DNA of 64,000 nucleotides from Rhynchopus sp. YZ270_cl-10 (lineage: Eukaryota), in NCBI GenBank assembly GCA_964035575.1, contig OZ037839.1:868001-932000 (forward strand), read 5' to 3'. Below, piece by piece: positions 8,774 to 58,252 of the stretch (positions are counted from its first letter, which is position 1; each line of letters begins with the position of its first letter). Position numbers and translations under genes: made by a program. The notes under the pieces are model-generated. The model was given only the letters and a program-made list of their open reading frames with translations. It was not told the origin of the DNA and made no database searches.

Positions 8774-9739
8774 TCATTCGTTCATGGAGTGCCTCCGTCG
8801 CTTGTGGGATTCCTCGGGAGACGCGTATCTGGTGCGTTTCGGACGTTCTTCAACTACAAACTCCTTCAGATTGCTCTGCCTGACTTCGTTGTCCACAACA
8901 TCGCTGCAGCCTGAGAGGTAGATGCGCCTCAACGAAGTGCAGTTTTCAACGAAGTACAAACCCACTCGGGTAACATTTCTGAGTGGCGAGAAGTCAACTG
9001 CTGTCAGGCTGGTACAGCCTAAAAGAAAGAACCGACCGATCTGCGTAGCCTTATCGAATGGTGTCAAGTGTAGGGTCGACAAACTCACGCAGTGGGAAAG
9101 AAAGCTGTCACTGATGCAACCAACACCGCTGAGTGGTGTCAAATCCACTTCCTTTAAACCTCTGCAATTGGAAAGAAAGTGCCTGCCAATCTGCGTGAGG
9201 CAGAGTCCTGACCAGTTTAGTGTTGTTAAGCTTTGGCAGTTGAATAGAAAGTTTTTATCAATCTTCGTAAGACTGCTCAACCCAGAGAGATCGACGCTTG
9301 TCAATGTTCGACAATTATAGAGAAAGTTTTCTCGGATCTCCTTCACACCAGACACAGCAGAGAGATCAAGTGCAGTTAACGATGTCCCGTATAGGAAGCC
9401 CATCGGAATAACAGTCGCAACTCCTGCCTGAAGAAGCAAACAGGCCACCTCAGGATCCCTCGCCATCAGCAACGTCTCTGCTGCGATCTCTTCGACACCA
9501 AACGCATGAAGTCTTGTGATGGCTTCGTATTTCGTCGTTTTCGTCAACACGACTGTGTCTCCAGCACTCAGTTCTGTGATGTCCTCTCCTTCCTCCTTCC
9601 CTCCGAAGCCCATGCGGAAGCTGTCTTCGCACAACCCTGTTGCAGACGCCACCTTCTGCCGCATCGTCTCCGTTGTGTCCTTCTCACCCACCTCAATCAC
9701 GTACTCCTCCTCTCCAAAACCCTGAACAGTTAGTTCCAT
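8774..9739 (-). CDS. UBL + BspA-like LRR protein, divergent paralogue 1
   Basis: MELTVQG..EVGEKDTTETMRQKV ubiquitin-like N-terminus, then about 6-7 heterogeneous LxxVDLSxLxxxxxIxxxFLxxC repeats. Confidence 0.85.
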   Translation of the reverse strand: MELTVQGFGEEEYVIEVGEKDTTETMRQKVASATGLCEDSFRMGFGGKEEGEDITELSAGDTVVLTKTTKYEAITRLHAFGVEEIAAETLLMARDPEVACLLLQAGVATVIPMGFLYGTSLTALDLSAVSGVKEIRENFLYNCRTLTSVDLSGLSSLTKIDKNFLFNCQSLTTLNWSGLCLTQIGRHFLSNCRGLKEVDLTPLSGVGCISDSFLSHCVSLSTLHLTPFDKATQIGRFFLLGCTSLTAVDFSPLRNVTRVGLYFVENCTSLRRIYLSGCSDVVDNEVRQSNLKEFVVEERPKRTRYASPEESHKRRRHSMNE

Positions 9740-9859
9740 TTCTGTGTGTCGCTCTGTTTTGTGGGGGTTGAGGGAGCAAGCATCTGCAACTACGATTTCT
9801 CCTTGAGTACCGTACGAGAGGAACACTGCTTCAAATCAAAAAACAAAAAAAAAACCAAT

Positions 9860-9982
9860 CTCTGCTTTGCGGGGTATGGAGCTTGCAATGGATGATATCT
9901 AAACCTATCACTGAGTATCGATTGGTGGACAAGTCTGGTGCCAGCACCCGCGGTAATTCCAGCACCAATAGCGTATATGTTA
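9860..9982 (+). pseudogene. 18S rRNA gene fragment (about 120 bp)
   Basis: GATTGGTGGACAAGTCTGGTGCCAGCACCCGCGGTAATTCCAGCACCAATAGCGTATA is the conserved SSU 515F/530-loop region; rest of the rDNA is absent; 5' limit approximate. Confidence 0.88.
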
Positions 9983-12318
9983 GAGGGTGGGCGTGTTTTC
10001 CTAGAATTTGACGGACGTAGCTCGTAGAACCCAACGAGGAATGAGAAAAAAGGATAATATTGTGGCGAAATTATAAAAGTAGCGCACCGTGCGCCTGCGG
10101 CGCAAGCTTACCGTAAATTGCATGACATAGGTACTGGGTACTCACCCAAAAAAGTGGACGGCATCTAAAAATGTCCGCCTGCGGCGCGGCAGCCCTTGAC
10201 CCAGTTTCCCCCTTGTCTTGTTCAGTCGGCAGGATCACTTGGCCCATCACCATACACTGATGTTGACCAAAAGCCAAGAACATGTCATTTCGTCAAATTG
10301 ACCCCCACCACAGCGCGGACGGATCCCAAAAACTCCACAAACTAGCTTCTCCAGGTCTTTCGCGCGCGAATCGCGCGAAGAACGTTTTCTGCCTCACCCC
10401 CCTAAGGTCAAAAAAACCGGTTCCTAAAAAAAACTCTGAAAAAAACAAAACAAAAAAAATATTATTGAGATGAACCTACCGGGAGTGAAAAATACGGAAG
10501 TAACAAAGTGGAATGGCATGAAGCATGCAAGCGGAATGTGAAGTGATGTGAAGTGAAGGAAAGAGAGTTGAAGTGAAGGACACGCAGAGAGCACAAGAGG
10601 AACTGTGCCCTTGATCCGACCCCAAAGAAGTGTCCAATGAAGGTGGGTGGTACAGTGGGGATGATTTCTTGCTCACTCAACAAAACACTACTCGACCCGC
10701 CCAAACACACAGAATAATCCTAACACCCCAATTCCCACTCCCGCTTTCTTCACTGCCCCTAAAAACCAACGTCACCTAGTCTGCTGCGTACAACGTTGCT
10801 ACACTTGTCCATTCCGTCGACTTTAGACAACATTTTGCAGTAGGAGAGAAAACTGTAACCAATCGTGGTGACTGCTTGCAGGCCGGTGAAGTCCACTTCC
10901 GACAATGATGTGCAGTTGTAGAGAAAACTGTTACCAATCGTGGTGACTGCTTGCAGGCCGGTGAGGTCCACTTCCGACAATGATGTGCAGTTGTAGAGAA
11001 AAGTGCCACCAATCGTGGTGACTGCTTGCAGGCCGGTGAAGTCAACTTTCGACAACGATGTGCAGTTGTAGAGAAAATTGTTACCAATCGTGGTGACTGC
11101 TTGCAGGCCGGTGAAGTCCACTTCCGACAATGATGTGCAGTTGTCGAGAAAACTGTTACCAATCGTGGTGACTGCTTGCAGGCCGGTGAAGTCCACTTCC
11201 GACAACGATGTGCAGTCGGAGAGAAACCTACCACCAATCGTGGTGACTGCTTGCAGGCCGGTGAAGTCCACTTCCGAAAATGATGTGCAGTTGTAGAGAA
11301 AATTGTTACCAATCGTGGTGACTGCTTGCAGGCCGGTGAAGTCCACTTTCGACAACGATGTGCAGTTGTAGAGAAAATTGTTACCAATCGTGGTGACTGC
11401 TTGCAGGCCGGTGAAGTCCACTTTCGACAACGATGTGCAGTTGTAGAGAAAATTGTTACCAATCGTGGTGACTGCTTGCAGGCCGGTGAAGTCCACTTCC
11501 GACAACGTTGTGCAGTTGTTGAGAAACTCGTCACCAATCGTGGTGACTGCTTGCAGGCCGGCGAAGTCCACTTTCGACAACGATGTGCAGGTGTTGAGAA
11601 AATTGTTACCAATCGTGGTGACTGCTTGCAGGCCGGTGAAGTCCACTTCCGACAACGTTGTGCAGTTGTTGAGAAACCCGCCACCAATCGTGGTGACTGC
11701 TTGCAGGCCGGCGAAGTCCACTTTCGACAACGTTCTGCAGCCGTGGAGAAACCCGCCACCAATCGTGGTGACGCAGGGTAATGCAGGCAGGTGCAGTGTG
11801 ATGCCACAGTTGTCATCCACATTGGGTACGCAACTGAAACCAATGCGCGTTACGTCACTACCTGAGAAGAAGTCTTCTGGAATCTCAGTCGCAACTTCTG
11901 ACTGAAGAAGCAAGCTGGCCACCTTCGGATCCTCCACCTGCTGCAACCTTTCTGCTGGTAAACGTTTTTTAAAAATAGGATGGAGCACCCCGGTCCGAAA
12001 AGGAATGCAGCCACCCCTGGCTTCAGGCTCGCGAACCCAGTATTGCAGTAACACTGGGTCTCACGGGCCAAAAACCGAACAAAGAAAAGGAAAATGTTTG
12101 GGTTCAGCGACAGCGCCAATGGGCTGACGCGAGGCTGAACCAACTTAAAATAAAATAAAAAATCTTGTATCAACTTGAAAAGGAAAAGCAATGAACAGCA
12201 ACAGAGCCATTTGGGCTTACGCGTCGCTATAGTAACTGAAAAACAATGTTTTAAAAACAAGAATGTCGTTGACCAAGATTGAAATACACGAAAAAGGTAA
12301 AATACTAAGAATTGCCTC

Positions 12319-41375: not shown

Positions 41376-43052
41376 CTAAAAACCAACGTCACCTAGTCTG
41401 CTGCGTACAACGTTGCTACACTTGTCCATTCCGTCGACTTTCGACAACATTGTGCAGTTGTGGAGAAAATAGGCACCAATCGTGGTGACTGCTTGCAGGG
41501 CAGCGAGGTCGACTTCCGACAACGATGTGCAGTCGGAGAGAAACCTGGTACCAATCGTAGTGACTGATTGCAGGGCGGTCAGGTCGACTTCCGACAACGA
41601 TGTGCAGTCGGAGAGAAACCTGTCACCAATCGTGGTGACTGATTGTAGGCCACTGAGATCGACTTTCGACAACGTTGTGCAGTAGGTGAGAAACTTGTTA
41701 CCAATCGTGGTGACTGATTGCAGGCTGGTGAAGTCCGCTTCCGACAACTTTGTGCATTTGTAGAGAAAATCATCACCAATCGTGGTGACTGCTTGTAGGT
41801 CGATGAAGTCCACTTTCGACAAGGATGTGCAGTGGTGGAGAAACCTGTCACTAATCGTGGTGACTGCTTGCAGGCCACTGAGATCGACTTTCGCCAACGT
41901 TGTGCAGTAGGTGAGAAACTTGTCACCAATCGTGGTGACTGCTTGCAGGCCGGTGAAGTCTACTTCCGACAACGTTGTGCATTTGTAGAGAAAATCATCA
42001 CCAATCGTGGTGACTGCTTGCAGGCCGATGAAGTCCACTTTCGACAAGGATGTGCAGTAGGTGAGAAACTCGTCACCAATCGTGGTGACTGCTTGCAGTC
42101 CGGTGAAGTCCACTTTCGACAACGTTGTGCAGGAGTAGAGAAACCTGTCACCAATCGTGGTGACTGCTTGCAGGCCGGTGAAGTCCACTTCCGACAACGT
42201 TTCGCAATTGTAGAGAAACCCGTCACCAATCGTGGTGACTGCTTGCAGGCTGGTGAAGTCCAATTTCGACAACGATGTGCAGTTGTAGAGAAAATGATCA
42301 CCAATTGTGGTGACTGCTTGCAGGCCGGTGAAGTCCAATTTCGACAACGATGTGCACTCGGAGAGAAACCCGTCACCAATCGTGGTGACTGCTTGCAGGG
42401 CGGTAAAGTCCACTTTCGACAACGTTGTGCAGTCGGAGAGAAACCCGCAACCAATCGCGGTGACTGATTGCAAGCCGGTGAAGTCCACTTTCGACAACGA
42501 TGTGCAGTTGTAAAGAAACCCGTCACCAATCGTGGTGACTGCTTGCAGGCCGGTGAAGTCCACTTTCGACAACGTTTCGCAGTTGGAGAGAAAATCGTAA
42601 CCAATCGTGGTGACGCAGGGTAATGCAGGCAGGTGCAGTGTGACGCCACAGTTGTCATCCACATTGGGTACGCAACTGAAACCAATGCGCGTTACGTCAC
42701 TACCTGAGAAGAAGTCATCTGGAATCTCAGTCGCAACTTCTGCCTGAAGAAGCAAGCTGGCCACCTTCGGATCCTCCACCTGCTGCAACCTTTCTGCTGT
42801 GATGTTTGTCTCACCCAATGCATGAAGAGCTGATATGGCTTCGTATTTCATCGTTTTCGTCAACACCACTGTGTCTCCAGCACTCAGTTCTGTGATGTCC
42901 TCTCCTTCCTCCTTCCCTCCGAAGCCCATGCGGAAGCTGTCTTCGCACAACTCTGTTGCAGACGCCACCTTCTGCCGCATCGTCTCCGTTGTGTCCTTCT
43001 CACCCACCTCCATCACGAAGTCGTTCCCCAAGCCCTGGATAGTCAGTTCCAT
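41376..43052 (-). CDS. UBL-LRR paralogue 3 (16 LRRs), intact
   Basis: UBL N-terminus + 16 x 25-aa LSKVDFTGLQAVTTIGxxFLxxCT + cap. Confidence 0.92.
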   Translation of the reverse strand: MELTIQGLGNDFVMEVGEKDTTETMRQKVASATELCEDSFRMGFGGKEEGEDITELSAGDTVVLTKTMKYEAISALHALGETNITAERLQQVEDPKVASLLLQAEVATEIPDDFFSGSDVTRIGFSCVPNVDDNCGVTLHLPALPCVTTIGYDFLSNCETLSKVDFTGLQAVTTIGDGFLYNCTSLSKVDFTGLQSVTAIGCGFLSDCTTLSKVDFTALQAVTTIGDGFLSECTSLSKLDFTGLQAVTTIGDHFLYNCTSLSKLDFTSLQAVTTIGDGFLYNCETLSEVDFTGLQAVTTIGDRFLYSCTTLSKVDFTGLQAVTTIGDEFLTYCTSLSKVDFIGLQAVTTIGDDFLYKCTTLSEVDFTGLQAVTTIGDKFLTYCTTLAKVDLSGLQAVTTISDRFLHHCTSLSKVDFIDLQAVTTIGDDFLYKCTKLSEADFTSLQSVTTIGNKFLTYCTTLSKVDLSGLQSVTTIGDRFLSDCTSLSEVDLTALQSVTTIGTRFLSDCTSLSEVDLAALQAVTTIGAYFLHNCTMLSKVDGMDKCSNVVRSRLGDVGF

Positions 43053-43498
43053 TTTATGTGTCTCTTTGATGTATCTCTGCTGGTGGGTTGTTGGGTAAGG
43101 AAGAGCTTTTAACCCGCAAACCCCAAGATTTTTTATCATCTGAATCCAAAGAAGCAAGAATTTATAACTTTTTAAAGTTTTCAGATTTATTAGATACGAG
43201 GGAGGGTTTGGTGGGGAAGAACCTTTTTTTGCGTTTTTTTGGCCGTGTTTCATCGCGCTGTTTTCAGTGACACTCTGTCAATAACACACAAACACACGCG
43301 ACTCACACCAATGTACATATGTCTGCCGACGTTTCGGCAATCGTCAGTAGCACTCACACACGAGCAGACTCCACCGATATTTCGGTGCACCCGTTCTTGT
43401 CCCTGTTTCAATCACTCGCGGATCGACTTACACAAACCCCACACTCCCGGCCTACGTACGTATAGCCAGAGAGCTAAAACACAAATAATTTTCTACCT

Positions 43499-43684: not shown

Positions 43685-45618
43685 ATCGCAGCCAACGTGA
43701 AGGGCATTCTCAACCCCGGCAGCCCGACATGGGCGGTAACCCACACACGCACACACCTCGACCTGTCGGTGAAATGTGGCTCTACTCCAACCCGCCCCGT
43801 ATTAGAAAAATGGAAAAAATGATGGGAGTAGGGTACGGTGTTCAATTTCCTTTTAGCATTGCATGTAATCATATAAAATAAAATGGATGCTTTGTCACGG
43901 CGTACGAAAGTGCTTCGAGGAGTTTTTTTTGAGAAAATTCCAAAAAAAAAAAAAAAAAAACGCTTGAATTTTTAGGGAAAAGCGCTTTTTTCCCTTAAGG
44001 GGTTTGTTAAGGGGGTTTAAGTCCACACTACAAGTGACCCAAACCAAATTTATCGAGTCGCCGATTTCCCGCTGTGGTCATTTTTCTGATAAAAATTACA
44101 AACGCAGTGCCATTTTATGGGAAGCTTTTTTAGAAATGTTGCGTACCGTGTCTTCGCCAGGAACTTTTGGGTGCCATGACCGCTGTTTACTGATAAGAAG
44201 GCTGACATCCACTGCGGCTTGTGGACGGCCACCTGCACCGGCCTCGGAAGAGTACAGTGTACAGGCCTCCTGCACAACAGCCCGGTAGGAAGTGAGAAGG
44301 AGCGAATGTCGCTGATTCGGAGGAACTCTGACTGTGCTTGGTTAACATTCGTCTCTCTGCCGGAGGCTACGATTGCAGGGGGGGTTTTTTTGGTACCATG
44401 CAACGGAAGTTTTTCAAAACTCAAAAATCCTGGCGGCGGGGCCGATAGTCGTCTTTTCCTTTTTTGATAGGGGGACGGGGCGGGGTGTGCATGCAAAGTT
44501 AAATGGAATGACATGAAGCATGCAATCGGAATGTGAAGTGTGGTGAGGTGAAGAACACGCAGAGAGCACAAGAGGAACTGTGCCCTTGATCCGACCCCAA
44601 AGAAGTGTCCAATGAAGGTGGGTGGTACAGTGGGGATGATTTCTTGCTCACTCAACAAAACACTACTCGACCCGCCCAAACACACAGAATAATCCTAACA
44701 CCCCAATTCCCACTCCCGCTTTCTTTACTGCCTCTAAAAACCAACGTCACCTAGTCTGCTGCGTACAACGTTGCTACACTTGTCCATTCCGTCGACTTTC
44801 GACAACGTTGTGCAGTTGGTGAGAAAATAATCACCAATCGTGGTGACTGCTTGCAGGCCGGTGAAGTCCACTTCCGACAACATTTTGCAGTGGGAGAGAA
44901 ACCCTTCACCAATCGTGGTGACTGATTGCAGGCCGGTGAAGTCCAATTTCGACAACATTTCGCAGTCGGAGAGAAACCCTTCACCAATCGTGGTGACTGC
45001 TTGCAGGCCGGTGAAGTCCACTTTCGACAACGATGTGCACCTGTAGAGAAACCAGTCACCAATCGTGGTGACTGCTTGCAGGCCGGTGAAGTCCACTTTC
45101 GACAACGATGTGCACCTGTAGAGAAACCAGTCACCAATCGTGGTGACTGCTTGCAGGCCGGTGAAGTCCACTTCTGACAACGTTGTGCACTCGGAGAGAA
45201 ACTTGTCACCAATCGTGGTGACTGCTTGCAGGCCGGTGAAATCCACTTCCGACAACGTTTCGCAGTAGGAGAGAAAATCGTCACCAATCGTGGTGACGCA
45301 GGGTAATGCAGGCAGGTGCAGTGTGACGCCACAGTTGTCATCCACATTGGGTACGCAACTGAAACCAATGCGCGTTACGTCACTACCTGAGAAGAAGTCT
45401 TTTGGAATCTCAGTCGCAACTTCTGCCTGAAGAAGCAAGCTGGCCACCTTCGGATCCTCCACCTGCTGCAACCTTTCTGCTGTGATGTTTGTCTCACCCA
45501 ATGCATGAAGAGCTGATATGGCTTCGTACTTCATCGTTTTCGTCAACTGGTGGGGGCCCGTTTTCGATGCATGCACCCCTATCCGAGATAGGTGATACAA
45601 TACATCGTGGAGGTGATG

Positions 45619-48600
45619 TTACATAAGTCCATCACCGCCCCTGCTGTGCCCATCCTTCTGCTTCGTCTGCTTCTTCTTGAAGAAGCCTCCCAGCGTCGTC
45701 TGACGCCCCTTCGAGGTGTCGTGGTGGCGGCGGCAGCAGTGCTCCAGCGTACTCTTCTCTTGCACACAGTTCCCGCACCTCGAGAGTCTATGCTTAGTGC
45801 ATGCTTCGTGTCGGATCGGTAACCCGTCGTCGTTGGAGTGGTGCGCAAAGCAGCAATGCATCAGGTCTGCCTGGGCGTTCTTCGAGCAGGCATCACACTT
45901 CGTCTTCCGGTGCAGCACACATATCGCAAACTGGAAGATCGGAACCGCTCCTTCAGGTGCCTTCACGGGTGCGTCCCCTGGACGCACGTGCTCATGGTGC
46001 CGGTAGCGAGCATGCGCAGATGTCTCCTGTTCAGCCCGCTGGATGAATGGTAGTGCCCTCCTGCCCCTAACTTCTGTGGAGGGGTACGCCGTCTCAGCAG
46101 AATACTCCCCCATCCATGTACCTCTCGCTCTATCGCCACCACGGAGCTCCGCCTCAGACATGCCTTCGGAGCTGCGTTGCAGACGGTACGCCACACCAGC
46201 ATCGTATAGCGCACGCAATGCCTTCAACGTTTCTTCTCCGCCGGCAAAGATAGGACGGCGGTCGATGCCTGTGATGGCGTTCGCCCCAAACGAAGCGAGA
46301 ACATGCGTTACCTTCACCTTCCCCGGATGGAGAGAGCTCTCCGAAAAGGTTCTGAGTGAAGCCAACATATGCCCAAAGGTGGTCGTCTTCGCCATTTCTC
46401 TGTGGGCCAGCGCTACTGGCACCACGTCGTCATCATCGTCGTCTTCCTCACTCCCGTCGTCTTCCCCCCCATTGTTGACTTCTTCCCCAGTCCCATCCCT
46501 CGGCTGCTTCAGCTTCGGCGCTATTCTGCCGGTCTTGTCCCCAGGTCGGATGTCCATCCCTGTGGCAACCTCGAAGTCGATGAGCAGCTCCATGTGGGAG
46601 ACTTCACGTCCAGCTTCGTCGCTCCATTGTAAACCACCCAGCCAGGAGGCAAACGCCAGCAGCAGCGCACGTCCATACGGCCACCTCCTTTTCAGGGGGG
46701 TGTAGTCCACCAAACTGTTCGCGTGTTGCGTCGTCGTGTCCAACTCCGGCGCCCACGTCCACGGGTATCGGTCTTCTTGCAGTCGCGGGTTCGTCGCTTC
46801 CGGTCTGCTCCACTTGGAGCGTGCGATGAGGATGCGCACCATCATCTTCTGCAGGTCTGCAACACGGGCGCATTCCAAAGGTGTGTCCGGTGTGCACATG
46901 CCGCAGATAGCGAGACAGTTTGGCCAGGTCGTTCTGTCAATGTCCAACAGCAAGGGGTACTCCGCACGAATGCTACTCCATGCTTCACATTCCCACCACA
47001 AGTGTTTGTGATTTTCGTCCACCCCCGCTTCGCAGTGCACGCAGATGGCCGAGTCCCGTATGCGCGCTCTCGCAAGTCGCACCCCCGTTATCGCACCGTC
47101 AGCTACAATGTGTCGTAGCGTCCCCGCCTCGTAATCCGTCAAAGTTTTGCTTCGGGTGAGAGCAAGGGTTTTCTCCTTATCCACCCCCGCTTCAATACCC
47201 TTCAGGTTAGCTCTGCCTTTGCCATTGGCCTTCGCAGTCGTCTTCGTACGGGAGAGTCGAATGAAGAACATCCGTTCTCGCACAACGTGGCCCAGTCTAC
47301 CCAAGCTTACTGTCTTCACATCAACGATGCTCCCATCGTGCGTTTTCACTTTTGTCGTGTCTATCCATGACCACGCAAGGCGGCTGAGGGCTCGCGCAAT
47401 CAACCCGATGGGTCCTCCAGTCTTCGCCTGCTTCGCTTTCGCACGTGACCTGCACTTTTCGACCAGCAAACAGATCTCATCCGATTTGCGTATCATCGCC
47501 GCCCACGTCATGATCCTTCTGTAGTCGAATGCCACCGAGGGGTCGAGCAGATGGCCTTTCTCGAAGACATTCAGCATGACCGGTACGCTTCTTCGGTTCA
47601 TCTTGTTCACGCCGTGGACCCCTTTCTCCACTGCAGTTGCAAGACTGTTCACGTATTTCCCAGGTGGGTCCTGCACCGTGATACCGTACACAGATTTCGA
47701 CATCACTGCAGCCTGCATGATGCCTGCTTTCTCACCTTGAGTCAGCGGGAGGCATCCCACCTTACCTGCTAGCGGTCCGCATGCGTCGATGGTGTCTTCC
47801 AGCTTCGTCGGGAGCGTGGGCGTCCCAGCCTGTCGGGCCTGCACCGTCGCCCCCAGGCACTCCGACTTCTCGACGCGAGTAAGATCCGCGCCGTTCATCT
47901 GCACAGTTTCCTCTTCATCAGGACGGTTGCTCTGCCACGTGCTCTTCCCCGCGTGGACGCGTTGTCCCGTCAAGTCTGCAAAGTGTCCGGTGAAGGCGAC
48001 ACCCGCTCGCAGCTGGTCGAGGGTCTTCGTCAGGAGGTTGGTGTCGTCAGCATACGCCAGCCCCTGCGTGCCCGTTTCCTTCTCCACCCCGTTCATCCAC
48101 ACCGCCACCAGCGCATTCAGGAAGATTACGCTCAGTGGGCATCCTTGGAGGATACCATTCGTCGCAAACCATTCTTTGCCAAGACCTGCCGGAAGTTTGA
48201 AACGCCTCCCCAGCTTCTTGTATATACCCCGGATGGGGCGCATCATGTTGTCGGGAAGACCCAACCGTTCGACGAGCTGGAACATGATCTCTTGGGGAAC
48301 ACGGTCAAAGCACTTCTGATAGTCGAAGGAGGCTAGATAGATAGGTGTGTCGTCTATCAGAGCCTCCTCCATCTTCGCACAGAGAAACCACAGCAGGTCT
48401 TCGGTTCCGTGTTTGTTCCGGAAGCCGTGTTGCCGCTCGTGAATCCAGGATTCCTGCCACGTCGCCACTTTGCGGAGTCGAGTCGCCGCCCATAACCTGT
48501 ACATCACACTGGTGATGGTAATGGGTCGCTGCTTCAGGGGCTCCTCGCCTTCTCCTTTGGGGATGAGCACCACCAACGCCCTCGCAATCACCCTGGGCCA

Positions 48601-50625
48601 GTTCCCAGTATCCTCGATCAGGTTCAGGCAGCGCGCGAGTTCCTCCAGCAGTGTCAAAGGCAGTTCCTTCAGCTCCTCCACCCTCCACCCATCGAGGCCT
48701 GCCGCCTTTTTCCGCTTCATCTTGCCGATGGTCGTACGGAGGTCGTCGGCGGTCAGGGGTTCGCATACACAAGGGGTCCCTTCAGGAATGTGTTCCTTGA
48801 ACCTATCAAAGAACGTCGTCCACGCAGGTTCTTCGGAATCGTCGTACATCCGGAACACCCCACCCCAAGCACGGTCATCCATGAGCAGTTCATCCATCTC
48901 CTGGAGGTTAGCTGTAACCGTGCCGTCCTCCCGTTTCAGGAACGTGGTGTGTGACGACGTAGCCTTCCGCAGGAACGAGAACACCTTCGCTGGGTTCTCC
49001 TTCATGTGTTCTTTCATTGTGCGGCGCCATTCCTTGATGCGGGCCCGACGCCGTTGCTCCAGCAGGACAAAACCCCTCTTCTTCAAGCAGCCAAGGAGCC
49101 CACACAACGCCTCTATCCCAGGAAGGTCGAGGTCCCAGGTGTCACTCTTCAGTAGATGCTTCTTCTTGCGGATTTTCGCCCACAGCTGCCGTTCGTTCAA
49201 CGATTCTGCAGATGGCTGACCGAAGCGCTTCCTCCGATCACCAATGAGCTGCTCCATCTGACGACATGTCTTCTGCAGTTGAGCCGTCTCCAGGTTCACA
49301 GCATCCGGCGTGTCGCAGTCCATGCGGGCCGTCCGATGTCGGAGAACGTCGGGTTGCACCTCCCCTCTCCCCCTGTGGCGTTGTTGCTTCGGGTCTGAGT
49401 CTGCAGCACCTCTCTTCAGCAGGTAGTCCTCCGCAATCTTGCAGAAGCGTGCCCAGCGATCTTCAACCGACATCTTCGTCAGGTCGGCTTCAGGGGCAGC
49501 GTTCTCCTGCATCACCTTCGCTGCAAGCTCCTTCTCCTTCTTCGCCGGCCATTTCGTCCAGTCGTCGCCGATCAAAGAAAGGGGAGGGCGTGCCTGCGGT
49601 GCCTTCTGCTCGTATCGCGTCAGGTCTAACGTCAACACCACCGGTCTGTGTACCGGGAGGCAGCTCTCTTTCCAGACCACCACTTTGGAGATCGCAGGGG
49701 CAGCCACGTGGTTCGCCAGCACCAAGTCGATACGTCTGCCAGACGATGTGGAGGTATAGCATGTGTTCTCTGCTGCCTTACCCAACTGCTGTGCGTAGGT
49801 ATCTGCCGCATCAACCCATTTGCCGGAGGAGATGGCCGCTCGAATGGCTAGACTTTCGTTAGCCTCTACGTTGAAGTCTCCGGCAATGAACACCGGTATG
49901 TCCCCAAGGCTGGCTGCTTCTTCAAAGATGCCTGTCAGGAGTTGCTCCGTGCGGTCGCTGTCAGCACACACACCATAAAACGAGAACACAGAGATGTTAC
50001 GTCCCCCGCTCCCATATGCCACCTGCGCATGCGTAAAGCGGCATTCGTTCCACGCTTGTTGGGCACATTGTGGCGGTACTGCTCTGGTCGGTATGTCAGC
50101 GCACGTCATGATCGCAACTCCACCATTCTGCGTGCGCGTGCGCAGAGGGTCTGATCCCTGGCTTCGTCTGCAAGGGGCACCAAAGAGAAGCTGCTTGGCA
50201 CCATACCCCTTCACGTCGTTTGCTGCCCCCTTCATCTCTTCTTCTGTGAGGCGCACCTCCTGCAGAGCACAAACGTCCACATCCCACTCCCCCACCGCAG
50301 GGTGTGCCCTCAGAGACGTCACGTTTGCCGTGCCAAGCGACATGGTCGACGGACCCGGATGCTCCTCCACGTCTCCACATGTCAGCAGTGACCCCCTGCC
50401 CAAAAACGCCCCTCGTCGCCTCCCTCGACGCACCCTGTGTCCGACCCCTCGCCCCACCCCCCTTCGCGTTCTACCCTTACCCCTTGTCCCCGACAGCATA
50501 CAGCCCGCAGAGCGCAAACGATGCTGACCCCTTGTTGGGGAGACAGTTTTCACAAAAACGTCTCGTTCTCCAACTACGCACGAAGAAGCCAATCCTGTGC
50601 CGTACCCTTCCACCGCACCACACCG
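45619..50625 (-). CDS. LINE ORF2: 2A-like peptide, APE endonuclease, reverse transcriptase, zinc finger, Cys/His repeats, PIP box
   Basis: APE motifs ANVTSL, LQE, GDFN, RIDLV, HRPV; RT motifs KAAGLDG, RPITI, QHGF, FDYQKCFD, LQGCPLS, YADD; CxxC..HLWWEC. Confidence 0.95.
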   Translation of the reverse strand, partial: RCGAVEGYGTGLASSCVVGERDVFVKTVSPTRGQHRLRSAGCMLSGTRGKGRTRRGVGRGVGHRVRRGRRRGAFLGRGSLLTCGDVEEHPGPSTMSLGTANVTSLRAHPAVGEWDVDVCALQEVRLTEEEMKGAANDVKGYGAKQLLFGAPCRRSQGSDPLRTRTQNGGVAIMTCADIPTRAVPPQCAQQAWNECRFTHAQVAYGSGGRNISVFSFYGVCADSDRTEQLLTGIFEEAASLGDIPVFIAGDFNVEANESLAIRAAISSGKWVDAADTYAQQLGKAAENTCYTSTSSGRRIDLVLANHVAAPAISKVVVWKESCLPVHRPVVLTLDLTRYEQKAPQARPPLSLIGDDWTKWPAKKEKELAAKVMQENAAPEADLTKMSVEDRWARFCKIAEDYLLKRGAADSDPKQQRHRGRGEVQPDVLRHRTARMDCDTPDAVNLETAQLQKTCRQMEQLIGDRRKRFGQPSAESLNERQLWAKIRKKKHLLKSDTWDLDLPGIEALCGLLGCLKKRGFVLLEQRRRARIKEWRRTMKEHMKENPAKVFSFLRKATSSHTTFLKREDGTVTANLQEMDELLMDDRAWGGVFRMYDDSEEPAWTTFFDRFKEHIPEGTPCVCEPLTADDLRTTIGKMKRKKAAGLDGWRVEELKELPLTLLEELARCLNLIEDTGNWPRVIARALVVLIPKGEGEEPLKQRPITITSVMYRLWAATRLRKVATWQESWIHERQHGFRNKHGTEDLLWFLCAKMEEALIDDTPIYLASFDYQKCFDRVPQEIMFQLVERLGLPDNMMRPIRGIYKKLGRRFKLPAGLGKEWFATNGILQGCPLSVIFLNALVAVWMNGVEKETGTQGLAYADDTNLLTKTLDQLRAGVAFTGHFADLTGQRVHAGKSTWQSNRPDEEETVQMNGADLTRVEKSECLGATVQARQAGTPTLPTKLEDTIDACGPLAGKVGCLPLTQGEKAGIMQAAVMSKSVYGITVQDPPGKYVNSLATAVEKGVHGVNKMNRRSVPVMLNVFEKGHLLDPSVAFDYRRIMTWAAMIRKSDEICLLVEKCRSRAKAKQAKTGGPIGLIARALSRLAWSWIDTTKVKTHDGSIVDVKTVSLGRLGHVVRERMFFIRLSRTKTTAKANGKGRANLKGIEAGVDKEKTLALTRSKTLTDYEAGTLRHIVADGAITGVRLARARIRDSAICVHCEAGVDENHKHLWWECEAWSSIRAEYPLLLDIDRTTWPNCLAICGMCTPDTPLECARVADLQKMMVRILIARSKWSRPEATNPRLQEDRYPWTWAPELDTTTQHANSLVDYTPLKRRWPYGRALLLAFASWLGGLQWSDEAGREVSHMELLIDFEVATGMDIRPGDKTGRIAPKLKQPRDGTGEEVNNGGEDDGSEEDDDDDDVVPVALAHREMAKTTTFGHMLASLRTFSESSLHPGKVKVTHVLASFGANAITGIDRRPIFAGGEETLKALRALYDAGVAYRLQRSSEGMSEAELRGGDRARGTWMGEYSAETAYPSTEVRGRRALPFIQRAEQETSAHARYRHHEHVRPGDAPVKAPEGAVPIFQFAICVLHRKTKCDACSKNAQADLMHCCFAHHSNDDGLPIRHEACTKHRLSRCGNCVQEKSTLEHCCRRHHDTSKGRQTTLGGFFKKKQTKQKDGHSRGGDGLM
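50350..50400 (-). other. 2A-like (StopGo) peptide GRGSLLTCGDVEEHPGP
   Basis: 16/17 identical to T2A GRGSLLTCGDVEENPGP; lies immediately before the APE domain. Confidence 0.85.
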
Positions 50626-53600
50626 TCACCGCCCCACATCGCGCAGGGTGTTGCGGCCTACCAACCTGTTGTCTAGTCCCTGGACGGGACGAAACGCGAT
50701 CTCGATGACGTCCCCCGCTACCTTCACGACAGTCACCGGGATGGCTGCGCCGTTGCCTCCCTCCTCGCAGTACTCCATGGAGTCGCCAGCCTCCAGCACT
50801 GCGTTCCCGTACGACTCCTCGTTCTTCTCGTTCCCCTCCGCCTGCTCTTTTGCGGGGACTTCCGTCCGCATCCTGCGCGGCGGACTCAGCAGCGCCACCG
50901 TCTCACCGGACTCACTGCGGTCTTCCCGCTTGCCCGCCAGGGTCACGGCAGGTGGCGCCACCGGCACTCTGGGAGCTGGCGAGGTCTCCGCGTCCTCCTC
51001 GACAGCCGCACAGTCTGGCGATGTCTGCACCGGCAGTGCCATGTCGGCGTCGTCCATCCGTGCCTCGGCGTCTGGTGTCGTGGGTGCGGGGGTCCCTGCG
51101 CCGGCGTTCTCCCCTTGCTCCTGCTCACGTTGTGCCTGCACTGCTGCAGCACGTCTCTCCTTCTTTGCCGCCGCTTCTTCCTGTGCTGCCCGTAGTGCCT
51201 CCCGTCGTTTCTCAGCGGCCACAATGTTCCTGCGTTTCTTCTTCTTCTTCGGGGACGCCACCACAACCTCCACATCACCGGCGCCAGCAACGTCCGCAGT
51301 CGGCGATGTGTCCCTGGGCGGTGCTGACCGCGACCGGTTCCGTGCTTCGGCGACTTCTACGACTACCCCCGGCTTTCCACGGATGGTGTCAGCCCTCCTC
51401 CTCCTGCGGCGCGGGCTCAGCTCCTCAACCTCACTGGACCCATTTCCCGCACGTATCCGCTTACCTGCCATCGTTGCGGGCTCCGGTGACATCACGTCCT
51501 CGGCATTCCCGTCTGGGAGTGTGTCCAACAATTCATCCGCCATCTGCATCTCGGGTGTTGTGGGCGCTGCAGTGGGCACTGCGACAGTCGGGGCCGTAGT
51601 AGCAGCAGCCTCCCCCTCGCGCTGCCTGGCGTTCTCAGCAGCAACTGCAGCAGCGGCGGCGGCGGCTTCCTCCTCCTGCTGCCAGAGGATTGCAGCAGCA
51701 GCGTCGGCTTCCTCACGCTGCTTGAGGACTGCAGCAGCGGCGGCCTTCTCCTCCTCCTCACGCTGCCTCAGGGCTGCAGCAGCAGCGGCCTTCACCTCCT
51801 CCTCGCGCTGCTTGAGGGCTGCAGCAGCGGCGGCCTTCGCCTCCTCCTCACGCTGCCTCAGGGCTGCAGCAGCGGCGGCCTTCACCTCTTCCTCACGCTG
51901 CTTGAGGACTGCAGCAGCAGCGGCCTTCTCCTCCTCCTCACGCTGCCTCAGGGCTGCAGCGGCGGCGGCCTTCGCCTCCTCCTCCTCCTGCCTCAGGGCT
52001 GCAGCAGCAGCAGCGGCGTCCTCTCTCGCAGCAGCCGTGGCCTCCTTCGGCATGGAACAGAGCTTGCCCACTTGCTCCAGCATGGCCGCCATCCACACCT
52101 GCTGCTCCTTCCGTTGCTCCACCCGTTCTTCCCGCAACTGGGCCGTCAGCGACGCCACCGTCTCCTGCAGCAGGGTCTGGAGGCGCTCGCCCACCAGGCG
52201 GTCCAACCTCTCCTCCATCCGGCGCTCCAACTCCGCCCACTTCTCGCCTGCGTCCTCAGGTGATGGGGCGGGCGACGTCATTGGGGGTTGACCCTTCGGC
52301 GTCCGTTGCTTCGTTGTTGTTGTTGTTGTTGGTGGAGGTGTCCTTGATGTGGTAGTGGGTGGCTTCGCTGCAGCTGGCGCTGTTGCTGCTTGGCGTGCGT
52401 GCGCAGCCCAGGACACCCAACCGTAGTCGGGCCCAGTGCCACGGTTGTGCTGCGCTGTCGCCGCCGGCGCCGTCCGGGCACCAAATGTCGGACCAGACGC
52501 ATGTGCGGTATGTACCTTGGCCTTCTGTTTCGCCCCCGGACCCGGAGCCGTTGCCCTACCCCCGCCCTCCTTATGCCCATCCTTGCGGATCAGCAGCCCC
52601 TTCCCGTTCCCCTCCATGTCCATGGCCCACGTCGGCGGATCCAGCTTCGCTCCCACCACCCAACGCCATCCCTCCAGCCTCCGCAGCGGCGTCACCGTCC
52701 ACCCTGCGCCTGCCAGCGACTCCATCACCGCTTCACCGGACGTACCCGACGGGAAACCGGACACCACGTATCGACCTTCGGGCGCCTTTCCCTCCTGCAT
52801 GAGTGCCGCATTTGCACGCTCCTGATCCTCCTTCTTCACCCGTATCCCCAGGGACTCGTACCTCGCCGCCACTCCCCATCCCCCCATCCGGGTCGCCAGC
52901 CCCTGGGCCTCTTCTAGCCCCACCCCGTCCACCAACCACACGACAGGCAGATGCTCCGACTGCTCGCGTCTCATCCGGAAGAAGACACCCCCCTTCCCAC
53001 TCTGCTTCAGGCAGCGCTCTGCTACGTCCTCCCTTACGTCGGCCACCGAGGAGATCAGCTTACCCTCCTGCCACAATGGTGGGCGGTTGAGGTTGCACCC
53101 CACCTCCGCACGCATCTTCTTCCCCGCTGACACCAGGTCCTGCGCTTGTCCTGCTGTCGGCCTCATCGTCACAAACACCGTCACCAGTTGGACGGCCGCC
53201 GACGCCTTCTTCCCCCCGTTTCCTCTCCCCGGCCTCAGCCTCCCCACCACGTACACGGCCGTGCTCGCCGCCCCGTTCACCTTCCCCCCATTCCCCTGCT
53301 TACCCATGGGGCACTGCATCTTCTCCCCACCAGACTTCGGGAAGGACCCGAAACCCACCCACGTCACGCCCGGCGTGCGCGCGATCTTCCCCTCTGCCTC
53401 TACCTCTCTACCCTGCGGCACAAGACAGACCCCCTCCGACTTATCCACCACCTCCCCCCACGGCACAAGCGTCGATCCCACCCACTCCGATTGCAGCAAT
53501 GTCAGCGCTGCCGTCGTCTTCTTTTTCCCTCCCCCCTGGGTGAAGCCCCCCTCCGTCCCCGCCTTCGCATCGTTTCGCGGTTGCGGCACGGTGTACGGCT

Positions 53601-54129
53601 TCTCCGTCACCTCCAACGCACCCCCCACCATCGCCTTGCGGGCCCGGTCTTCGGCGGCTTCTTCCCCCGTGCTCGTGGGGAGGACGCACAGGTAGTGGCA
53701 TGCGTCCACGTACGCCACCGTCACCGCTGCACCGCTGCCCTTCTCCTTCGGGTGCACCTTCAGCACACGCACCTCCCCATCCTTCACCGAGAAGGCATAC
53801 ACCTCCCGCATCAGCACCTCCGCCAACGCCTTCAGGGTCAGGTGGTCCCCCCAGGACCCCTGCTTCGCCATCGCCGAGCAGTACCTCCGGTAGGCGGACG
53901 GTCCTCCGTCAACGTGCTCACCCCAATTCTCCGCTTCCCGTTCCAACACCCCCACCGCCATCTCCCTCAGCCCCCCGTGCGCCGTGGCGTCTCCGTGCAC
54001 AGCCATCGAGACCGCCTTAAATTGGCAGTCTCCGTTCCCCCCTGCGTCCTTTACCCGCATGTCGAAGCCCCTCAGGTATTTCTGCAGCACCCCCTTTTCC
54101 CCCCCTTGGCCACCTGCCCCTCCGCACAT
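50626..54129 (-). CDS. LINE ORF1: N-terminal OTU-like cysteine protease, RRM-like region, Ala/Glu coiled-coil repeats
   Basis: GNGDCQFKAVS..WGDHLTLKALA..CHY; RYVVSGFPSGTS; (AAAAALRQREEE)n; first in-element ATG at 54129. Confidence 0.85.
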   Translation of the reverse strand: MCGGAGGQGGEKGVLQKYLRGFDMRVKDAGGNGDCQFKAVSMAVHGDATAHGGLREMAVGVLEREAENWGEHVDGGPSAYRRYCSAMAKQGSWGDHLTLKALAEVLMREVYAFSVKDGEVRVLKVHPKEKGSGAAVTVAYVDACHYLCVLPTSTGEEAAEDRARKAMVGGALEVTEKPYTVPQPRNDAKAGTEGGFTQGGGKKKTTAALTLLQSEWVGSTLVPWGEVVDKSEGVCLVPQGREVEAEGKIARTPGVTWVGFGSFPKSGGEKMQCPMGKQGNGGKVNGAASTAVYVVGRLRPGRGNGGKKASAAVQLVTVFVTMRPTAGQAQDLVSAGKKMRAEVGCNLNRPPLWQEGKLISSVADVREDVAERCLKQSGKGGVFFRMRREQSEHLPVVWLVDGVGLEEAQGLATRMGGWGVAARYESLGIRVKKEDQERANAALMQEGKAPEGRYVVSGFPSGTSGEAVMESLAGAGWTVTPLRRLEGWRWVVGAKLDPPTWAMDMEGNGKGLLIRKDGHKEGGGRATAPGPGAKQKAKVHTAHASGPTFGARTAPAATAQHNRGTGPDYGWVSWAAHARQAATAPAAAKPPTTTSRTPPPTTTTTTKQRTPKGQPPMTSPAPSPEDAGEKWAELERRMEERLDRLVGERLQTLLQETVASLTAQLREERVEQRKEQQVWMAAMLEQVGKLCSMPKEATAAAREDAAAAAAALRQEEEEAKAAAAAALRQREEEEKAAAAAVLKQREEEVKAAAAAALRQREEEAKAAAAAALKQREEEVKAAAAAALRQREEEEKAAAAAVLKQREEADAAAAILWQQEEEAAAAAAAVAAENARQREGEAAATTAPTVAVPTAAPTTPEMQMADELLDTLPDGNAEDVMSPEPATMAGKRIRAGNGSSEVEELSPRRRRRRADTIRGKPGVVVEVAEARNRSRSAPPRDTSPTADVAGAGDVEVVVASPKKKKKRRNIVAAEKRREALRAAQEEAAAKKERRAAAVQAQREQEQGENAGAGTPAPTTPDAEARMDDADMALPVQTSPDCAAVEEDAETSPAPRVPVAPPAVTLAGKREDRSESGETVALLSPPRRMRTEVPAKEQAEGNEKNEESYGNAVLEAGDSMEYCEEGGNGAAIPVTVVKVAGDVIEIAFRPVQGLDNRLVGRNTLRDVGR

Positions 54130-54166
54130 CGCGTCGAGGCTGCCCCCCGCCGCCGTCCTTCTTCCC

Positions 54167-54250
54167 CGCGCTTTAGCAGACGCCTCCCCCCATAGAGGAG
54201 GGGGGCGTCTCCCGAGGGTACCCCGTGGAGGCGCGTCGTCTCTCACCCTC
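54167..54250 (-). ncRNA. HDV-like ribozyme at the LINE 5' end (predicted)
   Basis: GAGGGU(P1)..CGC(P2) GCC(P3) UCCACGG(L3) GGU ACCCUC(P1') GG G AGACGCC..GGCGUCU(P4) GCUAAA GCG(P2'); P2 is short. Confidence 0.75.
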
Positions 54251-55041
54251 TTCATCGTTTTCGTCAACACCACTGTGTCTCCAGCACTCAGTTCTGTGAT
54301 GTCCTCTCCTTCCTCCTTCCCTCCGAAGCCCATGCGGAAGCTGTCTTCGCACAACTCTGTTGCAGACGCCACCTTCTGCCGCATCGTCTCCGTTGTGTCC
54401 TTCTCACCCACCTCAATCACGAAGTCCTTCCCCAAGCCCTGAATAGTCAGTTCCATTTTCTGTGTCTCTTGATGTATCTCTGCGGGTGGGTTGTTGGGTA
54501 AGGAAGAGCTTTTAACACGCAAACCCCAAGATTTTTTATCATCTGAATCCAAAGAAGCAAGAATTTATAACTTTTGAAAATTTTTCAAATTTATTAGATA
54601 CGAGGGAGGGCTTGGTGGGGAAGAACTTTTTTTCGCGTTGTTTTAACTCTGGGAGGGAGAGAAAGAGAGAGAGAGAGGGTTATTGTGGGTAAGTTGTGCG
54701 GGTGTATTAACACCAGCCCAATACCACGGAGAATGGTTCTGCTCAAATAAAAAACTTCAAAATACCGTCTTCGTACAAATTATCGACCATAAAAATGTTC
54801 GACCTTTTCAGGATTTTATTAGAAGTTCGACCTGTTTTACGGTCGAACATTCTTACGACCACGGTAAAAAGGAAAAAGAATTTGCCGTGTTATGAGAAGA
54901 AAGAAAAATAGAGAAGTGGAAAAGTGCAGATGCCTCACCGCACATCGGCAGACGCAGGGCATTGGTTCCCTTCGGGGTTATCAAACCCCAGAGAGCACTT
55001 CTTTGGGGAAAATGAGGCTTTTTGGAGAAAATCTAGACACC

Positions 55042-56725: not shown

Positions 56726-58252
56726 CTAAAAACCAACGTAACCTAGTCTGCTGCGTACAACGTTGCTACACTTGTCCATTCCGTCGACTTTCGACAACGT
56801 TGTGCATTTGTAGAGAAACCTGTCACCAATCGTGGTGACTGATTGCAGGGCAGTGAGGTCGACTTCCGACAATGATGTGCAGTTGAAGAGAAAATCGTCA
56901 CCAATCGTGATGACTGCTTGAAGGCCGGTGAAGTCCACTTTCGACAACGTTGTGCATTTGTAGAGAAACCTGTCACCAATCGTGGTGACTGCTTGCAGGC
57001 CGGTGAGGTCCACTTCCGACAACAGTTTGCAGTTGTAGAGACAATAATCACCAATCGTGGTGACCGCTTGCAGGCCGGTGAAGTCCACTTTCGACAACGA
57101 TGTGCAGGAGGAGAGAAAATAATCACCCATCGTGGTAACTGATTGAAGGCCGGTGAAGTCCACTTCCGACAACGTTGTGCACTCGGAGAGAAAATAATCA
57201 CCGATCGTGGTGACTGCTTGCAAGGCGGTGAGGTCCACTTCCGACAACGTTGTGCAGTTGTAGAGAAAATAATCACCAATCGTGGTGACTGATTGCAGGC
57301 CGGTGAAGTCCACTTCCGACAACGATGTGCAGTTGTAGAGAAACCTATCACCAATCGTAGTGACTGATTGCAGGCCGGTGAAGTCCACTTCCGACAACGA
57401 TGTGCAGGAGGAGAGAAAATAATTACCAATCGTGGTGACTGATTGCAGGCCGGTGAAGTCCACTTTCGACAACGTTGTGCATTTGTAGAGAAACCTGTCA
57501 CCAATCGTGGTGACTGCTTGCAAGCCGGTGAGGTCCACTTCCGACAACGATGTGCAGTTGTAGAGAAAATAATCACCAATCGTGGTGACTGCTTGCAAGC
57601 CGGTGAAGTCCACTTCCGACAACGATGTGCAGTTGTAGAGAAACCTATCACCAATCGTGGTGACTGATTGCAGGCCGGTGAAGTCCAATTTCGACAACGA
57701 TGTGCAGGAGGAGAGAAAATAATTACCAATCGTGGTGACTGCTTGCAGGCCGGTGAAGTCCACTTTCGACAACGTTGTGCAGTTGCAGAGAAACCTATCA
57801 CCAATCGTGGTGACGCAGGGTAATGCAGGCAGGTGCAGTGTGATGCCACAGTTGTCATCCACATTGGGTACGCAACTGAAACCAATGCGCGTTACGTCAC
57901 TACGTGAGAAGAAGTCTTCTGGAATCTCAGTCGCAACTTCTGCCTGAAGAAGCAAGCTGGCCACCTTCGGATCCTCCACCTGCTGCAACCTTTCTGCTGT
58001 GATGTTTGTCTCACCCAATGCATGAAGAGCTGATATGGCTTCGTACTTCATCGTTTTCGTCAACACCACTGTGTCTCCAGCACTCAGTTCTGTGATGTCC
58101 TCTCCTTCCTCCTTCCCTCCGAAGCCCATGCGGAAGCTGTCTTCGCACAACTCTGTTGCAGACGCCACCTTCTGCCGCATCGTCTCCGTTGTGTCCTTCT
58201 CACCCACCTCAATCACGAAGTCCTTCCCCAAGCCCTGGATAGTCAGTTCCAT
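56726..58252 (-). CDS. UBL-LRR paralogue 5 (14 LRRs), intact
   Basis: Same architecture as 41376-43052. Confidence 0.92.
   Translation of the reverse strand: MELTIQGLGKDFVIEVGEKDTTETMRQKVASATELCEDSFRMGFGGKEEGEDITELSAGDTVVLTKTMKYEAISALHALGETNITAERLQQVEDPKVASLLLQAEVATEIPEDFFSRSDVTRIGFSCVPNVDDNCGITLHLPALPCVTTIGDRFLCNCTTLSKVDFTGLQAVTTIGNYFLSSCTSLSKLDFTGLQSVTTIGDRFLYNCTSLSEVDFTGLQAVTTIGDYFLYNCTSLSEVDLTGLQAVTTIGDRFLYKCTTLSKVDFTGLQSVTTIGNYFLSSCTSLSEVDFTGLQSVTTIGDRFLYNCTSLSEVDFTGLQSVTTIGDYFLYNCTTLSEVDLTALQAVTTIGDYFLSECTTLSEVDFTGLQSVTTMGDYFLSSCTSLSKVDFTGLQAVTTIGDYCLYNCKLLSEVDLTGLQAVTTIGDRFLYKCTTLSKVDFTGLQAVITIGDDFLFNCTSLSEVDLTALQSVTTIGDRFLYKCTTLSKVDGMDKCSNVVRSRLGYVGF

Follow-up and report, generated by a model that had tools for sequence, protein, structure and literature searches.

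In human L1 and SART1, two open reading frames (ORFs) lie on one RNA of a long interspersed nuclear element (LINE) and the second is made rarely, by reinitiation or unconventional initiation at the ORF2 AUG, with no 2A peptide and no leaky-stop context; the spacer of human L1 is short (PMC5972666). The LINE described here lies on the minus strand of a 64,000-nucleotide stretch of Rhynchopus sp. YZ270_cl-10 (contig OZ037839.1, positions 868,001-932,000; the window, to which all coordinates refer), and is likewise predicted to place two ORFs on one RNA and to make ORF2 rarely. Peptides of the 2A type stand before the APE domain of L1Tc, Ingi and several metazoan LINE clades, which are mostly described as lacking ORF1 (PMC3708506; PMC3894237). 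L1Tc and Ingi resemble the window LINE in the 2A directly before APE, in the HPGP variants among their copies and in a probably euglenozoan host, but they have neither ORF1 nor an upstream in-frame stop, whereas the window LINE has an ORF1 of 1,167 codons with an OTU domain; the presence of this ORF sets it apart from the Ingi clade, which is characterized by a single ORF and no ORF1. A single sentence in print suggests that ribosomes read through the ORF1 stop of the Group 3 non-long-terminal-repeat (non-LTR) retrotransposons of Paramecium tetraurelia (PMC5405496). These belong to a different clade and host, readthrough is a prediction there as well, and the passages concerning them mention no 2A. 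Among viruses, Type II readthrough takes place at UGA followed by CGG or CUA, and UGA-CGG serves in this way in tobraviruses, furoviruses, coltiviruses and, for nsP3/nsP4, alphaviruses (PMC3159437); all of these except the coltiviruses had been named in an earlier reading of the window (the sequence-only reading). As at the window junction, a polymerase lies downstream in frame and the hexamer is kept across diverged lineages, but Type II viruses have a conserved stem-loop 7-9 nucleotides (nt) after the stop, whereas the window LINE has none that is significant. The 2A motif of Thosea asigna virus, GDVEENPGP, is about 99% active (PMC8623073); the window motif GDVEEHPGP is one residue away (His for Asn), and that of a Diplonema relative (P0001) reads GDVHENPGP.

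ORF1 and ORF2 of the window LINE lie in one frame and are parted by a single TGA, as can be read directly on the minus strand at 50628-50626 and as the sequence-only reading had maintained. The features of this junction, and of the ORF2 that follows it, are:

50629..54129, minus strand: ORF1, 1,167 codons from AUG 54129, an AUG conserved in both subfamilies (A, which includes the window copy, and B).
50623..50628, minus strand: the ORF1 stop TGA (50628-50626) and the next codon CGG, in the context GAT GTG GGG CGG TGA CGG TGT GGT.
50401..50622, minus strand: the spacer, Arg/Gly-rich, with 75 open codons in the ORF1/ORF2 frame counting CGG (frame analysis).
50540..50564, minus strand: a local spacer hairpin with a 10-bp stem and one bulge (z = -2.09 for a 46-nt piece).
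50497..50499, minus strand: an AUG that reads into the 2A and ORF2; going downstream from the stop, no AUG occurs earlier in any of the three frames (frame analysis).
50350..50400, minus strand: the 2A-like peptide, GRGSLLTCGDVEEHPG followed by P (full peptide GRGSLLTCGDVEEHPGP), directly before the APE domain.
45619..50349, minus strand: the ORF2 body after the 2A, stop TAA included, with APE, reverse transcriptase (RT), Cys/His motifs and a long C-terminal region.
49672-50298, minus strand: the APE domain (Exo_endo_phos, Pfam 6.3e-10).
47914-48564, minus strand: the RT domain (RVT_1, Pfam 2.5e-19).

The T2A-like peptide had been placed some 90 codons past the stop and before APE; it is found at 50400-50350, its last codon, the Pro, is the 92nd after the TGA, and no stop intervenes. 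A single minus-strand frame is in fact open from 54564 to 45619 save for this one TGA, the stop-to-stop frames 50626..54564 and 45619..50625 sharing their frame, and over the 8,703-nt element the coding frame contains two stops (the junction TGA and the terminal TAA) as compared to 78 and 123 in the other sense frames. TGA is an ordinary stop in this window because the P450 ORF (4852-6618), as previously pointed out, and two other host ORFs end in it. Selenocysteine decoding of the TGA was considered and dropped, the 3' untranslated region being only 71 nt long and giving no hit to a selenocysteine insertion sequence (SECIS). We propose that a minority of ribosomes would read through UGA-CGG, giving an extended ORF1p-ORF2p, and that ORF2p would leave the extended ORF1p by peptide-bond skipping (StopGo) at ...EEHPG/P. 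Readthrough would set a low ORF2p:ORF1p ratio, and StopGo would tolerate His at the position of the usual Asn. The ancestor would have carried ORF1, 2A and ORF2 in a single ORF, like Diplonema P0004, and would later have acquired the leaky stop. This is the best single reading of the locus, and we would put its probability at roughly 0.4.

Most of the weight rests on comparison with other copies of the element, which were sampled via a protein collection (one ENA assembly) and contigs of public sequencing runs. At least seven subfamily A and four subfamily B ORF1 copies, the latter 47-50% identical to subfamily A, are spread over at least seven contigs of the assembly. All subfamily A ORF1s that reach the end (P0007, which is the window copy, P0008, P0009, P0012 and P0014; 5/5) finish with ...NTLRDVGR, all of those in subfamily B (P0010, P0011, P0015 and P0016; 4/4) finish with ...CLFGRTK, and the two kinds of end share one alignment column, the last 37 columns being free of gaps. 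P0006 and P0013 are frameshifted earlier in ORF1, never reach the end, and are left out of these nine informative copies. A sense codon at this place in other copies, which the sequence-only reading had named as the outcome that would refute it, was therefore sought and none was found, 9/9 ORF1 ends stopping at the homologous codon. Contigs of the A type span the stop and are identical to the window there (depth 792 in X1, 1914 in X4 and 4.1 in X2), and those of the B type leave the alignment at 50601 (depth 282 in X1, 599 in X4 and 2.4 in X7). The loose end of the latter, when reverse-complemented, reads AGG ACG AAG TGA CGG GAT GGT GTG ATG GTT, that is, ...RTK and a stop, in agreement with P0010. 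TGA-CGG is identical in the two subfamilies although the flanking codons differ. At 50518-50569 the A and B types make up the entire depth (1914+599=2513 in X4; 792+282=1074 in X1), and no variant at 50626-50628 reaches the 5% listing threshold in X1 or X4, a result that bounds only common variants since contigs may drop rare ones. On this comparison the TGA is judged to be ancestral and not a lesion of the window copy. The layout of subfamily B is similar: after the stop come 18 nt, then 114 nt that align without a gap (50601-50488), then 108 nt (69 in the window) and finally the block with the 2A. These lengths are all multiples of three, and the stop and the 2A therefore share a frame in subfamily B too.

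ORF2 has been maintained beyond this stop. The window frame is intact over 1,668 codons, and the nearest solved chains are those of L1 ORF2p and R2. Within the RT stretch 48223-48319, 20 of the 25 differences between the subfamilies fall at third positions, with 17 synonymous versus 4 replacing codons (p=2e-6), and seven further differences scattered over ORF2 comprise six synonymous changes and one replacement. The larger length differences in ORF2 (12, 6, 3 and 3 nt) are in frame and three pairs of 1-nt differences compensate within about 6 nt; uncompensated frameshifts are present as minority variants (+1 at 47849, +4 at 49424 and -1 at 49548). These counts show strong purifying selection on the RT in the comparison of the two subfamilies; ORF2 has accordingly stayed functional in both lineages, each of which carries the stop. 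In the protein collection, which was searched over 247-788 and 917-2919 amino acids (aa) and by exact look-ups from both ATGs, the intact window ORF2 (45619-50613) is absent and its ORF1, P0007, is present; the sole ORF2 copy found is P0017, a frameshifted protein of 567 aa.

Selection is also seen in the 2A-like peptide itself. Its motif, DVEEHPGP, fits the class A consensus D(V/I)ExNPG/P at all positions except for His in place of Asn. Two differences between the subfamilies are listed within it (50368 and 50374), both synonymous, and the His codon is unchanged; coverage of 50354-50402 by this listing was taken from the distance-to-end values of the aligned contig pieces. The spacer beside the 2A is too diverged to be aligned between the subfamilies. 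Since the 2A has only synonymous changes next to a spacer that cannot be aligned, translation would enter it from upstream, which rules out AUG 50343 as the main start of ORF2. Taken together, the ancestral stop, the selection on RT and the purely synonymous changes in the 2A imply that ORF2 is expressed despite the in-frame stop, and through the 2A. A conserved 2A and an ORF2 under purifying selection fit the scheme of the sequence-only reading, which is thereby partly supported; readthrough itself is a prediction within it. N-to-H variants of the kind that the sequence-only reading had named are indeed in print, with 20% of L1Tc copies carrying HPGP and showing reduced activity (PMC3708506). 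Class A peptides seldom have His before PGP, and such peptides usually fall short of the activity seen with Asn, though some are active (PMC12338488).

Readthrough draws additional support from relatives in which there is no stop to be passed. The nearest named proteins are LINE gene models of Diplonema papillatum, elements that the genome paper, in the parts that concern them, annotates coarsely (PMC10161547). In P0001 (43% identity), GRGSLLTCGDVHENPGP immediately precedes APE, in the same place as the window 2A; P0004 carries an ORF1-like region, two RCGDVHPNPGP motifs and APE-RT, all in one ORF, and P0096 has an ORF1-like region and APE in one ORF. A HMMER search gave 666 matches at E<=0.001, and 40 of the best 150 carry [NH]PGP just before APE, with His in a 2A-like context in nine of these 40. 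Four other proteins (P0070, P0049, P0038 and P0110) have an OTU domain fused to APE-RT in one ORF, and P0026 has a protease-like N-terminus and two RGG/G sites just before APE. Given these fused ORFs, continuous translation from an upstream region into APE-RT, with a separating device, is common in the group, and ORF2p may be freed in some members by a protease acting on its cleavage site and in others by a 2A. A scan of metagenomes with an alignment yielded 11 loci (a scan with a single protein gave no match), among which only one, L001, is close (35% identical in APE). In L001 (1-260) the upstream frame is open to the contig start and ends with TGA in the same frame as a 2A, SCGDVEQNPGP; counted from this TGA, the 2A ends after 40 codons and the first in-frame AUG comes only after 124. 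The absence of an AUG between stop and 2A in L001 also supports readthrough, with the proviso that this locus is a single degenerate copy and has TGC after its TGA. The other 10 loci represent different 2A-LINE clades with leaders of their own and no in-frame upstream ORF. Matches in viral contigs cover the 2A region alone, and a GTDB scan gave no informative relative.

Several observations weigh against readthrough followed by StopGo. Among shuffled sequences 4% have an open spacer of 75 codons, as do 5-17% of the segments of that length in the non-coding frames, so that the open frame alone is only suggestive, and the GC content of the spacer by codon position (0.63/0.67/0.53) is unlike that of the ORFs and not coding-like. 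The eight differences between the subfamilies listed in the spacer (five at third positions; 4 synonymous versus 3 replacing codons, p=0.09) provide only a weak coding signal. Subfamily spacers differ in length by -6 and +39 nt, and the letters of the B spacer are unread, so in-frame stops may be present there. Downstream of the stop, the RNA folds no more stably than shuffled versions of it do (z -0.11, +0.63 and -0.65), the last value belonging to a 7-bp hairpin that begins 8 nt after the UGA and is not significant. The first AUG after the stop, at 50499, could serve as a start in the 2A frame; it lies 126 nt after the stop and is preceded by 42 open codons, which encode the peptide stretch CGAVEGYGTGLASSCVVGER. 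In subfamily B an in-frame AUG stands four codons (12 nt) after TGA-CGG. In the peptides for which measurements are given, StopGo is usually weaker with His than with Asn (PMC12338488, PMC3708506). Finally, no fused ORF1-ORF2 protein was seen in the protein collection, searched up to 2,919 aa, whereas a protein of this kind would be longer. As for other structure near the junction, the hairpin at 50564-50540 has changed in subfamily B at 1/20 stem bases compared to 4/5 loop or bulge bases (Fisher 0.002, post hoc), and Rfam gives no match at the junction.

These points bear chiefly on an alternative in which ribosomes terminate at the UGA and then reinitiate, or resume scanning, at AUG 50499, the short leader being removed afterwards by the 2A, as in L1Tc, Ingi and other 2A LINEs that lack ORF1; the start in subfamily B would perhaps be the AUG four codons past the stop. 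Such initiation would account for most of the same data. No AUG precedes 50499 in any frame after the stop, 50499 is in frame with the 2A, subfamily B has its in-frame AUG near the stop, and the GC pattern of the spacer is not coding-like. Reinitiation is, moreover, accepted or proposed for SART1 and human L1 (PMC5972666, PMC3708506), and a short leader before the 2A is usual in 2A LINEs (PMC3708506; metagenome loci L003-L008 and L017). Nevertheless, this explanation requires a series of coincidences, namely that the spacer should continue the ORF1 frame (1 in 3), that the 6-nt difference upstream of the AUG should be in frame (1 in 3) and that 42 codons before the AUG should be open (0.16-0.37), the joint chance of which is about 0.02-0.04. 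The near-stop AUG of subfamily B corresponds to GUG at the matching place in subfamily A, and there is no conserved start codon at that position. Ribosomes that have translated an ORF longer than 1,100 codons generally reinitiate with low efficiency. The UAAUG that is the hallmark of SART1-type termination-reinitiation is absent, the AUG lying 126 nt after the stop in the window and 12 nt in subfamily B, and reinitiation leaves unexplained why TGA-CGG was retained while its neighbors diverged. We regard initiation at AUG 50499, followed by StopGo, as the one strong rival of readthrough, though a less probable one than readthrough itself.

An improbable alternative is that ORF2 is translated from a separate capped mRNA, generated at a spliced-leader acceptor inside the spacer and starting upstream of AUG 50499. 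mRNAs are trans-spliced in Diplonema, the source of the nearest named relatives (PMC10161547), and the spacer has a local dip in GC content (0.47-0.50 at 50595-50550) with pyrimidine runs and then AG, but such an mRNA would need the same coincidences of frame as reinitiation. That the TGA arose as a nonsense mutation in copies now dead, or that the elements no longer make ORF2p and are mobilized in trans, might be suggested by the frameshifts of P0006 and P0013 in ORF1 and of P0017 in ORF2 and by the minority 1-nt and 4-nt indels in ORF2, but is highly improbable and, on the sequence comparisons, already largely refuted by a stop common to two subfamilies at 50% ORF1 identity (9/9 ends), an intact window ORF2 of 1,668 codons, a perfect 18-bp duplication and the purifying selection on RT.

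The element and its insertion site are defined by the following features:

45548..54250, minus strand: the LINE, a full-length APE-type insertion of 8,703 bp without a poly(A) tail (flanks compared with an empty paralogous site).
54251..54268, minus strand: 5' copy of the target-site duplication, GTTGACGAAAACGATGAA, 18 bp that are identical at both LINE ends.
45530..45547, minus strand: 3' copy of the target-site duplication, a perfect 18-bp match to the 5' copy.
54269..54459, minus strand: host exon encoding the ubiquitin-like N-terminus of a ubiquitin-like/leucine-rich-repeat (Ub-LRR, BspA-type) gene, in frame with the LINE (paralog comparison).
53695..54039, minus strand: OTU cysteine-protease domain in ORF1 (Pfam PF02338, 9.8e-10).

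The limits of the LINE follow from the flanks of this GC-rich block (58-66% GC compared with about 50% in the flanks), which recur elsewhere in the window and are joined without a gap, and with 18 bp shared, at the empty paralogous site 42847-42864. The 18-bp target is single-copy and unoccupied in four paralogs in the window (at 58064, 42864, 14512 and 9548, the last with one mismatch). ORF2 has an N-terminal APE and then RT, the insertion is bounded by a target-site duplication, and there are several genomic copies; judged by its sequence, the element is a young, recently active, multi-copy APE-type LINE. The start previously implied for ORF1 (MELTIQ, 54459) has to be given up, as comparison with the empty paralogous site shows that it is host ubiquitin-like sequence and that the LINE begins at 54250. 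Its first AUG is 54129, which aligns with the Met of subfamily B, and ORF1 from there on consists of the OTU domain (nearest solved chains OTUD5 and OTUD1), a central domain that Diplonema P0004 shares, an array of Ala/Glu-rich repeats and, at the C-terminus, a conserved domain. The array (51644-52014, AAAAALRQREEE...) varies in copy number, ORF1 lengths ranging from 1,224 to 1,395 aa; P0006 is frameshifted within the array and P0013 next to it. Upstream of AUG 54129 are 40 open codons (54130-54250), partly conserved as protein between the subfamilies (RV[RK]D[DS]APPRGTLG[RG]RPPP), and subfamily B has TLGG in this stretch, similar to a deubiquitinase cleavage site. We speculate, from the OTU domain and this TLGG-like site, that a host-derived N-terminus could be trimmed off.

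The LINE has the orientation of the host Ub-LRR gene and is inserted directly after the ubiquitin-like domain, in frame. Pfam matches to ubiquitin and LRR_5 are found in the host paralogs at 41376-43253 and 8774-9739, and the same insertion codon is used in at least five Ub-LRR paralogs, the window copy included. To judge from these junctions, this looks like in-frame, site-specific targeting of a host gene family. The subfamily A proteins P0008, P0009, P0013 and P0014 are fused at this codon to different paralogs (..LTK(T/V)xK/RVRDDAPP), and their LINE parts are 98-100% identical; the upstream contexts of subfamily B copies differ from the Ub-LRR junction. The 64-kb window itself has at least five Ub-LRR paralogs, and 75-bp tandem repeats (10816-11957, 41433-42864, 44791-45297 and 56783-58064) encode the 25-residue LRR units of this family. 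An isolated fragment of eukaryotic small-subunit ribosomal RNA (rRNA), 116 nt long, lies at 9853-9968 on the plus strand (Rfam 78 bits); scattered pieces of rRNA genes have been reported from the Diplonema papillatum genome (PMC10161547). A more ambitious reading, which we consider doubtful, is that three virus-style devices would act on one RNA, with in-frame landing behind a host ubiquitin-like domain providing a borrowed start and OTU trimming, the leaky UGA-CGG setting the ratio as in gag-pol, and the His-variant 2A freeing ORF2p.

The sequence-only reading had regarded readthrough coupled to StopGo as a strategy new to LINEs. This stands for the coupling, of which no description was found, and fails for readthrough of an ORF1 stop as such, which had already been suggested in Paramecium (PMC5405496). 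In the parts consulted, articles on non-LTR readthrough, 2A LINEs and diplonemid retrotransposons describe no retrotransposon in which a 2A comes after a stop of the leaky type. Only the tandem of stop readthrough with a 2A therefore appears to be new, since LINE 2As, HPGP variants and predicted LINE readthrough are each in print.

The scant production of ORF2p from a bicistronic LINE RNA is a long-standing question for which only reinitiation models have been tested, in SART1 and human L1. In the window LINE, the conserved stop, its leaky context, the shared frame and the 2A predict readthrough of the gag-pol kind followed by StopGo. If this is true, readthrough would join the known means of LINE expression, a cellular element would use two recoding events in series, readthrough and StopGo, which are not known together from any other retrotransposon, and its 2A would be a natural, selected class A peptide of the HPGP type. 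In-frame targeting of a host ubiquitin-like family would, in addition, bear on how LINEs gain access to translatable mRNAs under polycistronic transcription.

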